From Antedon mediterranea (Eukaryota; Animalia; Echinodermata), in NCBI RefSeq assembly GCF_964355755.1, contig NC_092670.1, positions 50,001-114,000 on the forward strand: a stretch of 64,000 nucleotides of DNA, given 5' to 3'. The position numbers and the translations under genes were made by a program. A model generated the notes under the pieces. The model did not search any database, was not told the origin of the DNA, and saw only the letters and a program-made list of their open reading frames with translations. This document shows positions 50,601 to 64,000 of the stretch, in pieces (the first letter of the stretch is position 1; the number at the start of each line of letters is the position of its first letter).

Positions 50601-53600
50601 GCATTTACACTCCCTGACATGTTTATGTCTAGAGCATAATTATGTTTGCCTACAGATTTACTATACAGTATGTGAAATCAAAGTATAATTTGGTGGGGTG
50701 TTTTTTTGTTGTTTTTTTTCCAGATTTTTAGGAGATTTTTTGGAGCTGAAATTTGGTGGATTTTTTCCAAATGATGGTATGTTGCACATATTTTGCACTA
50801 ATTTGTGATACATTTTAGTATAAAGGGATAGGCAGTTTTTGAAATATCACATATTTTAGATTCTAATTTTTACAAATACTGTATAAAAAATGTAAGCACC
50901 ATTGAGTGTTTTAATATGATGTTTATTTTGACAGTGTAGTTACATTAGTATTTAAGTAACAAACTCATAAATGCTGTATATCTAAATGATCTATAGTATT
51001 TAATTCACAAACTGATCAATATAAATATCTTATTTTGTAGTTCCAATACTTTCCCAAGAAAGTTGTGCCACTCTTGAAATATCTCTAATTAAAATTTGTC
51101 ACAAGCGTAGAAAGGTGAGTTGTTTCATAAAACCAAAAAGACAGGTAACTAAGTATCCTATTACTATACAAAGCTTTAAACTTTATTGTCTAACATCATA
51201 CATACTTTAAATTTAATATATTATTTATATTATTAAATAATAATAGTAATTTGATAATCAGTGAATGAGTTTTTTCTGTTTCTGCAGGATACTTCACCGT
51301 ATGAACCCATACAAGTAGGAAGATGCCGTGTACCAATTGACCCAGCTGACCTTTCCACTGAGTTGCATTCCACAATATCCATAAACAGCCAGCTTTTGGA
51401 CTCCACCAATGGCCACACTCCTAACTCATATGTGCTACATTTTAAAGTCCATTTCCAAATTTTGACGACAGAAAAACTATGCAATTATGTTTCTGAAGAG
51501 TGTTCTCTGGGTAATTACATTAGTTTAGTATAACAACAATTATTAACTGTACTGTATAATTGTTGTTGAAACTAAGCTATATAAGATATCAAATATTTAT
51601 TGTTCCATCATAAAATATGTTGGAAATTAATTTTACAAATGGCATACAAATACAAAAATACATATAAACAATACAAATGTAAATATAAAAAGAAAACATG
51701 TACTTACACTAAATAGGTGAACTGGATACGTTCATTAATGCTAAACCACCATTGACAACTTTCAGTTTTACTTTTGTAGATGAAACACCAAACAAACGTA
51801 GACGTCCCTCACGTTCACAAGACACAATGGAAAACATAACATATACCTCAGAGCTAGCCGTTCTTGATAAGTATGGTCGATGTCAACTAACTCCAGCAAA
51901 GTATGAACTTGTCTTCCAAGAAACCAAAGTTAAAGGAACCAAAAATGCATCATGGGAAACAATTATGGAAGGCAAAGTATGAAATAATTTATTATAATTT
52001 CATGTTTGTTTATGAACATTTGTAGTGGGTATGTGTAAGCTTGATAGAGGATTTGTAAACACAAAGGTTCTGAAATATAGTTTTAGTATGACTTTCCAGG
52101 ACTTTCTATGCGGTGATTTATTCTAGATATAATGGTCATTTGGCTCAACGTATTGGAAATATCTAATCTGTGCAAACTCCACAGCCATTTACAAAGTTCT
52201 GAAAAACATTCTTATTAAGACTAGCAAGTTGTGGATGAGAGCAAAATATTCTTGGAAAAAATTAGTTTAAATACAAATTTAATGTTATGATCTAGTTTTT
52301 ACAAATACTTTCTGTTTCATCATCATCATCTTCCGTTACGCTATTCGTCTTGGGTAGACATTACGTACGCTAATCGTTTCCATGACTCTCTTTCGGTGGT
52401 CTGATGGTCTGTCATTAATTTTGCGATCGATGTATTTGCTTTTTTGAGTTCTTTATTTATGTTTCCTATCTGTTTATTCACTAAAATATTTGATTCTAAT
52501 AATGTCTTTATACACAGAATGTTCAACCTTTTGAGCTGATCAACAAAGGCCCTGTTCTTAAATTCCATACTGTTTGGCACCGGGAACAAAATGGAGTTTT
52601 AAACGGCTCTACAAACATACCAAATGGTTTAAACCATTATTCATCAGTTGAAGATGATGAAGAAGATATAACAGGTAATGCCAGAAAACAAATTAACAAA
52701 GCATACTATCCTACATACTACTGCATTAGATCTATGCTTATCACCACTATTTTGCCAGTCAAAATTCCCTATAGTTGAAGTATCCAGAATTTCTGTAGTT
52801 TTAAACTTAGGCATTTTTATTCAATAAATATTCAAATATGTGTATATTAATATGACTATTATTACTATTTAAAGCAATAAAAAATAAGGAGGCAGTAGTA
52901 GAGAAACTTGGTAAAGATCTCAAAATGGTTTCTGAGAAAAGAAAACATCGAGTATTTTACCAATTCCTGTATAACAATAATACAAAACAACAAACAGAAG
53001 CTAGAGAGAATATGCATTGTCCATGGTGTTCACTCAATTGTATGCAGCTGTATGGCCTGCTTAAACATCTTACTCTCTGTCACAGTAGATTTAACTTTAC
53101 GTATATTGTAAGTATACACTATTGTTTGTTTTTTAATCAATTAATGAAAATTAATACATTATTGAAATAAATTGAATAATTATTTATATATGGTAAATCG
53201 ATCATTTGTAATTTTGTATTTTTTTTATAGCCTTGTGAATCAAACACAAACATAAATGTAACATTAAATGAGCATTTTGTACTTTTCTTATAGCCATGTG
53301 AATCAAACACACGCATAAATGTAACATTAAATGAGCATTTTGTACTTTTCTTATAGCCATGTGAATCAAACACACGCATAGATGTAACATTAAATGAGCA
53401 TTTTGTATTTTTCTTATAGCCATGTGAATCAAACACACGCATAGATGTAACATTAAATGAGCATTTTGTACTTTTCTTATAGCCATGTGAATCAAACACA
53501 CGCATAGATGTAACATTAAATGAGCATTTTGTACTTTTCTTATAGCCATGTGAATCAAACACGCGCATAAATGTAACATTAAATGAGCATTTTGTACTTT

Positions 53601-63100: not shown

Positions 63101-64000
63101 TAAACATTCAGTCGTAATGGACCATGCCGTAGAACACCGGTCACTCAAATACTAGGTATGAAGTAAATATTCCATATTATTCAATGACACACTAAACATT
63201 CAGTCGTAATGGACCATGCCGTAGAACACCGGTCACTCAAATACTAGGTATGAAGTAAATATTCCATATTATTCAATGACACACTAAACATTCAGTCGTA
63301 ATGGACCATGCCGTAGAACACCGGTCACTCAAATACTAGTTATGAAGTAAATATGCCATATTATTAATAACACACTAAACATTCAGTCGTAATGGACCAT
63401 GCCGTAGAACACCGGTCACTCAAATACTAGGTATGAAGTAAATATGCCATATTATTCAATAACACACTAAACATTCAGTCGTAATGGACCATGCCGTAGA
63501 ACACCGGTCACTCAAATACTAGGTATGAAGTAAATATTCCATATTATTCAATGACACACTAAACATTCAGTCGTAATGGACCATGCCGTAGAACACCGGT
63601 CACTCAAATACTAGGTATGAAGTAAATATTCCATATTATTCAATGACACACTAAACATTCAGTCGTAATGGACGATGCTGTAGAACACTGGTCACTCAAA
63701 TACTAGGTATGAAGTAAATATGCCATATTATTCAATAACACACTAAACATTCAGTCGTAATGGACCATGCCGTAGAACACCGGTCACTCAAATACTAGTT
63801 ATGAAGTAAATATGCCATATTATTAATAACACACTAAACATTCAGTCGTAATGGACCATGCCGTAGAACACCGGTCACTCAAATACTAGTTATGAAGTAA
63901 ATATGCCATATTATTCAATAACACACTAAACATTCAGTCGTAATGGACCATGCCGTAGAACACCGGTCACTCAAATACTAGTTATGAAGTAAATATGCCA
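57056..64000 (+). repeat. 91/92-bp tandem array (at least 75 copies, runs off the window) of the SUZ12 exon-11 3' end plus splice donor
   Basis: Unit CATTCAGTCGTAATGGACCATGCCGTAGAACACCGGTCACTCAAATACTAG(T/G)TATGAA|GTAAATATGCCATATTATTCAATAACACACTAAA. The first copy encodes [18 protein letters not shown]. Confidence 0.96.

Follow-up and report, generated by a model that had tools for sequence, protein, structure and literature searches.

Exon 11 of SUZ12 in the feather star Antedon mediterranea lies between tandem arrays of its own acceptor and donor boundaries

Results

The SUZ12 gene and its eleventh exon

The window, by which we mean the whole stretch of 64,000 nucleotides of Antedon mediterranea DNA that was analysed, carries the SUZ12 gene of this feather star on its forward strand (Table 1). 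The original prediction had named the gene from the letters of the sequence, and the name is borne out: the translation of exons 1-11 equals the first 458 residues of the NCBI protein P0001 with 0 differences, exon 10 being 100% identical. P0001 is itself an NCBI annotation model and thus no proof of splicing. It shares 44-50% identity with most deuterostome SUZ12 matches, and no second Antedon SUZ12 occurs among the best 120 of 1069 matches, the next match being 50% identical.

Exons 1-10 (44682..53107, +) supply 406 codons. Pfam places two domains on P0001, both above cut-off: Zn_SUZ12 (PF23320) at residues 353-420 and the VEFS box (PF09733) at residues 476-605. Exon 11 encodes the end of the zinc-finger domain and the linker to the VEFS box, which lies C-terminal to this exon as had been claimed.

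Table 1. Coordinates of SUZ12 features and associated tandem arrays, in positions of the window.
Feature	Position	Strand	Basis
SUZ12 exons 1-5	44682-44781, 45376-45422, 46173-46237, 46339-46407, 50724-50776	+	Translation identical to P0001
Boundary array at SUZ12 exon 4 donor, 135 nt x 30; starts with 2 nt of exon and GTAAGT; opens intron 4	46406..50492	+	TRF
SUZ12 exons 6-10	51041-51114, 51288-51510, 51780-51976, 52518-52674, 52875-53107	+	Translation identical to P0001
Ancestral intron 10, 123 nt, whole	53108..53230	+	Sequence; runs straight into exon 11 in relative B (X6 contig)
Acceptor array, 63-nt unit x 60.1	53211..57004	+	TRF; unit-by-unit split
SUZ12 exon 11, 158 nt, residues 407-459	56956..57113	+	P0001 identity; RNA contig edges
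Unrepeated core of exon 11, 51 nt	57005..57055	+	Sequence; TRF
Donor array, 92-nt unit x 75.8	57056..64000 (runs past window end)	+	TRF
Higher-order duplication in donor array: units 37-69 are a second copy of the 3025-bp block formed by units 4-36; 31/33 units identical	57330..63379	+	

Arrays of the exon's own boundaries

Splitting the TRF arrays unit by unit upheld the anatomy first proposed for this exon and fixed the counts at 59 extra acceptors upstream, at least 75 extra donors downstream and a unique core of 51 nt between them. TRF reports matches of 96-97% over both arrays. The acceptor array consists of 60 units, the last of which holds the true acceptor. Each unit joins 20 nt of intron end to 43 nt of exon start (49 nt, or 16 codons, when the 6-nt junction overlap is counted). 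The AG is kept in 60 of 60 units, preceded by T in 58 (TAG) and by A in two (AAG). The outermost unit is the most diverged, with six differences from the true unit, some of them non-synonymous, whereas regular interior units carry 0-4. A changed peptide is encoded by 24 of the 57 regular copies; the commonest variant, at exon position 24, is synonymous and occurs in 23 of these 57. Only three of the 60 acceptors would give an exon shorter than 300 nt with the first donor.

The outermost acceptor copy also closes the short ancestral intron 10, which retains a donor, a branch-point-like GTAAT at -20 (a motif match only), a pyrimidine tract and the AG of that copy.

Downstream, at least 76 units of 91-92 nt each join 58 nt of exon end to 33-34 nt of intron start, and the first of them contains the true donor. 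GAA/GTAAAT (the slash marks the splice site) is kept in all 76, and an in-frame TAA follows immediately after the true donor. Two features of the locus go beyond the original prediction. One is the duplication of a 3025-bp block within the donor array. The other is a T>G change at 57107 (Val to Gly), present in 51 of the 75 extra copies, that creates a second donor, TAG/GTATGA, 7 nt upstream; this change is missing from the coding unit, from the next unit and from a close relative described below. The true and variant donors could not be separated by strength, each having six of nine letters of the donor consensus. Altogether 54 of the 75 donor copies encode a changed peptide. Variants thus drift among the decoys, yet AG or GT is kept throughout.

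The right splice sites are unmarked by local sequence, because 17 of the 59 decoy acceptors (over -20..+49) and 19 of the 75 decoy donors (over the repeated stretch) are letter-identical to the true ones. We tested 60 x 127 = 7620 acceptor-donor pairs, and the only stop-free combination was 56956-57113, so the earlier statement that only the innermost pair is open stands, and SUZ12 is encoded only via that pair. Decoy acceptors run into a stop at codon 21 in 53 of 59 cases. SUZ12 is an essential gene, and any decoy product would lose the VEFS box because exon 11 starts at residue 407.

Both arrays recur in contigs from two samples

Nine runs had contigs with unique flank; we used the read-derived contigs of four of them (X3, X5, X6 and X9) and left out X1, X2, X4, X7 and X8. 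Both arrays are real, since contigs built from the reads of two samples contain them. In DNA run X3, which may come from the assembled sample, one contig stops at the array edge, and the acceptor unit reaches a depth of 17,383 against 312 alongside, an excess of about 56-fold in summed depth, which is a rough guide. Run X5, from a different sample and a different study, contains unit-to-unit junction contigs for both arrays. Depth over the donor unit exceeds that over the acceptor unit 4- to 8-fold in X3 and 4.5-fold in X5, again as a rough guide; the donor array therefore probably comprises a few hundred copies and extends well beyond the window.

It had been allowed beforehand that the arrays might be assembly artefacts, or that this might be an untranscribed copy with an intact paralog elsewhere. 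We now give almost no credence to an artefact or a dead gene copy. The 3025-bp block repeat is near perfect, so the exact copy number may be uncertain, and four of the DNA runs among the nine stem from one sample, possibly the assembled one. Against this stand the depth and the contig break in X3, the junction contigs in the second sample and the many patterned ways in which the units differ. As for a dead copy, the locus is spliced in RNA, its frame is intact, and the best 120 matches hold no second SUZ12.

A close relative without the arrays

Neither exon 11 array is present in a close relative, here relative B, whose genomic sequence departs from that of the window by 116 letters in 2420 aligned (~5%). 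One 1322-nt DNA contig of relative B (run X6) consists of exon 10, the short intron, exon 11 and then unique intron, and its loose ends at 56936 and 57135 are unlike the arrays. Between these positions it differs from the window at three sites (57045, 57051 and 57072), none of them in the acceptor unit. The innermost acceptor copy is thus the conserved coding one, since relative B matches it exactly whereas the outermost has six changes. Run X9 adds a full mRNA contig of relative B with the same exon 11 edges.

By parsimony, from the two species compared, the simpler reading is that the arrays were gained in A. mediterranea rather than lost in relative B. Short words are shared at the ends of the units, the 6-nt ATTTTG in the case of the acceptor and the 3-nt CAT, read from relative B's intron, in that of the donor, and this suggests that slippage gave rise to them. 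Each array may have begun with a single slip between short matching words and grown by unequal exchange. Both the lack of arrays in relative B and the duplicated block within the donor array are indirect signs of instability.

RNA at the locus

The SUZ12 locus is transcribed and spliced. X5 represents one run of one other A. mediterranea individual, and that it is RNA is a guess for which the spliced joints are the sole support. In it, one 1341-nt spliced contig covers exons 5-10 with five GT..AG joints and extends for 30 letters beyond exon 10 before it ends; RNA contigs of X9 likewise show GT..AG joints within this set of exons. No joint of exon 10 to the outermost acceptor copy is listed in the X5 contigs, and the 30 letters beyond exon 10 aligned to neither the outermost nor the innermost copy. 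Such an end fits assembly from 31-letter words if the next word is common to the array, while a contig with an outermost-type junction would run further and align at 53231. On the donor side, exon 12 is joined at 57113 in one X5 contig and at the variant donor 57106 in none, with the proviso that 24 of the 75 decoys share the T-type sequence and would give an indistinguishable joint. The exon edges appear as RNA contig ends at 56956 in X9 and at 57113 in both X5 and X9.

Assembled contigs drop rare forms, the identical copies (17 acceptors, 19 donors) look like the innermost one, and nonsense-mediated decay (NMD) would hide wrong products. Read in this light, the RNA contigs speak against a main role for the outermost acceptor or for the variant donors, and normal splicing of exon 11 in A. 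mediterranea is supported, not proven. The ratio of RNA to DNA depth, taken across different individuals, was 0.002-0.007 over the arrays, 0.006-0.014 over dispersed repeats and 0.08 over exons.

No contig of X5 or of DNA run X3 covers the 51-nt exon core, and because the gap is common to both it points to a filter or assembler effect. A 93-nt repeat contig of X5 (56898-56985) departs by two letters from the window's true exon start. Most simply, these are one variant counted twice, in which case the exon 10-11 junction of the X5 individual and the true copy in the window are probably one letter apart. The coding exon of that individual may then carry an array-type letter, a hint that coding exon and array share variants.

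Other repeats and genes in the window

Tandem arrays cover 31,451 of the 64,000 bases (49%). The array at the exon 4 donor of SUZ12 contains 51 GTAAGT words; in the X9 mRNA of relative B, exon 4 is joined normally to exon 5 (loose end at 50724). In SRP68 (Pfam SRP68), a 73-nt unit present 8.3 times at 15184-15787 reproduces the final 51 nt of an exon, whose edge we placed by eye, together with its donor, and GT is changed to AT in five of its seven extra copies. At 39280-39466, a 38-nt unit repeated 4.9 times contains the last codons and stop of a gene with a below-cut-off match to Peptidase_M16_C (E 0.03); this gene resembles that of a mitochondrial complex III core subunit. A further array of 77 58-nt units (1657-6122) has, on the minus strand, a pyrimidine tract, CTAAC, AG and ~25 nt in each unit, and its last unit opens 21 codons and a stop. 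By these features it is possibly another acceptor array; no gene was identified there, and Pfam gave no match.

Tandem arrays that pair up in opposite orientation (units of 106 nt; 15/47/64 nt; 16 nt; and 10 nt) lie at 19378-29640, 30296-32302 and 10516-11464 and look like nested transposons with subterminal repeats. LINE-type reverse-transcriptase-like fragments were recognised by eye at 42290-43650 and 7300-7900. An FKBP-type isomerase gene (Pfam FKBP_C) occupies 40100-41860 on the minus strand, head to head with SUZ12.

Discussion

How the exon may be found among its copies

We think it likely that the arrays are tolerated and that the spliceosome pairs the acceptor and donor lying closest across the exon (exon definition), with NMD clearing up errors. 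Exon definition is the likeliest selection rule on the evidence above. U1 would occupy the first donor, 5'-to-3' and first come, as in human F7, and the exon would then be defined with the nearest upstream acceptor; none of the acceptor copies is provided with a good donor. The true acceptor no longer has its native branch-point context and would instead use the exon-derived GTAAC at -33, the only branch-point motif match within the acceptor unit. Rare wrong choices would all meet a stop and be removed by nonsense-mediated decay. In human data, cross-exon proximity governs the choice of site under exon definition (PMC9225289), which would favour the innermost acceptor here. The arrays themselves are likely tolerated by-products of repeat instability, of the kind called 'mirages'.

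Two other means of finding the site were tried and rejected. RNA structure does not pick it out: array segments and intron 10 form structures no more stable than their shuffled versions (z 1.2 to 2.1 for the segments, 0.07 for the intron), and none of 17 inverted pairs links the two arrays. A 25-nt complement between exon 10 and the outermost acceptor is ordinary, in that 34 of 300 shuffles were as stable and other acceptors pair equally well; the unpaired fraction was 0.30, as compared with 0.33-0.48. Rescue by an exitron, or intron gain by a duplicated proto-splice site, finds no in-register AG/GT or AG/GC in the repeated parts of the true exon.

A costlier outcome can be imagined in which the intact 123-nt intron, recognised by intron definition, captures a large share of transcripts onto the outermost acceptor and NMD destroys them, the arrays being a cost and no control device. 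That intron is whole, down to its donor, branch-point-like motif, U-richer tract and AG. Moreover, the human data favour the upstream of two competing 3' sites in general, strongly so where the upstream intron is short, and exon definition merely reduces the preference (PMC9225289), so that use of the dead-end outermost acceptor is predicted here. Summed RNA depth, at 70 for the acceptor unit against 24.8 for the mRNA, also leaves room for some transcripts that retain the array. Spread over 60 copies, however, that signal comes to ~5% of mRNA per unit, no higher than over other repeats. The X5 contigs contain no outermost-type junction, choosing the outermost acceptor would demand a 3.9-kb exon, and a real cost would favour loss of the AG, which is kept in 60 of 60 units. 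We therefore regard a large loss of this kind as unlikely. Its fuller form, in which the share sent to decay depends on array length, a hypermutable repeat sets PRC2 dose and a coding exon exchanges letters with hundreds of copies of its ends as these drift, we consider distinctly unlikely.

The original prediction went further and supposed that array length could tune the ratio of productive to NMD-targeted SUZ12 mRNA. Such a rheostat, set by array length or by cell state and thereby controlling PRC2 dose, has its logic available, since every alternative pair contains a stop, and human tandem repeats can alter splicing (PMC10078293). Yet close relative B does without both arrays, the adjacent housekeeping gene SRP68 has similar ones, and the decoys show no conserved design; decoy junctions are absent from the RNA contigs (which drop rare forms), and RNA over the arrays is at background. 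Tuning of SUZ12 output by array length is unsupported, and we hold a rheostat to be very unlikely. Still more improbable is removal in two steps, whether by splicing first to the outermost acceptor and then excising the array like an internal intron, or by stepwise cutting of the donor array at AG/GT ratchet points. AG/GT does occur in 51 units of the donor array, but these ratchet-like sites have no pyrimidine tract. In the acceptor array AGGT does not occur and AGGC occurs only three times, never in the last unit, which leaves no in-register cut able to restore the exon; and the mRNA would carry the changed codons of the outermost copy, which P0001 and the X5 contig suggest it does not.

The case is useful as an extreme, two-sided one in a single-copy gene whose product hangs on one of 7620 site pairs. 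Two thirds of coding exon 11 adjoins many mutated copies of itself, and at exons of this kind short-read mapping and annotation are untrustworthy. A species pair with and without the arrays offers a natural before-and-after test of an invertebrate spliceosome's move from intron to exon definition and of the error load on NMD. The ancestral 123-nt intron, still intact, should draw splicing to a dead-end acceptor, with any loss hidden by decay, and the species pair makes this point testable.

Comparison with known systems

The arrangement had at first been taken as unprecedented, which does not hold: the class of boundary arrays is already known, by appearance common in marine invertebrates, and the exon 11 arrays are an extreme, two-sided case of one described form, the 'mirage' minisatellite. 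In the main texts of the literature consulted, which took in few subscription papers, we found no report of the SUZ12 locus, nor of any exon flanked by boundary arrays at its two ends. Mirages were described in amphioxus, in the globins BflGb6 and BflGb9 and in Adh3 (PMC3087553), the last known to us via later papers, and then in PGBD5 and troponin C (PMC3902484); both sources report that they leave splicing undisturbed. Like mirages, whose described units measure 10-160 bp, the exon 11 arrays are made of minisatellite-like units that follow one another head to tail and span an authentic boundary.

In the amphioxus cases, too, tandem copies of an intron-exon boundary lie on the acceptor side in BflGb6 and on the donor side in BflGb9, many units keep AG or GT, and a homogenised interior gives way to a diverged unit at the edge (PMC3087553). 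The scale is different: SUZ12 exon 11 has 60 acceptor units and 76 or more donor units, probably several hundred, against 3-6 in BflGb6 (PMC3087553). Exon 11 further departs from the amphioxus mirages, as far as these are covered there, in its crinoid host, in the involvement of both exon edges, in the 51 unique nt left between them and in having a known array-free close relative.

For the donor side, the closest experimental parallel is the 37-bp VNTR in intron 7 of human F7, where only the most upstream donor was shown to be used, even against somewhat stronger downstream sites (PMC1557585). There, as in the exon 11 donor array, the first unit spans the exon-intron junction and identical donors follow it (PMC1557585). 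The F7 repeat has 5-9 copies and lies on the donor side only, whereas exon 11 has 76 or more, most with a second donor; and its acceptor array adds a harder task, that of skipping the first fully equipped 3' site (PMC1557585).

Studies of competing sites resemble the situation at exon 11 in that near-equal sites are chosen by cross-exon proximity when introns are long (PMC9225289). Those studies concern human pairs of two sites; at exon 11, 60 acceptors face 127 donors, and the upstream intron measures 123 nt or 3848 nt depending on the choice made (PMC9225289). Finally, the Rogers model derives intron gain from tandem duplication of an AG/GT proto-splice site (as summarised in PMC3087553). 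Exon 11 shares with the model, as so summarised, an intragenic tandem duplication and the appearance of AG/GT, in 51 donor copies; unlike in the model, the true exon lacks AG/GT, the acceptor array has none, and the intron position is the old one, with no new position added.
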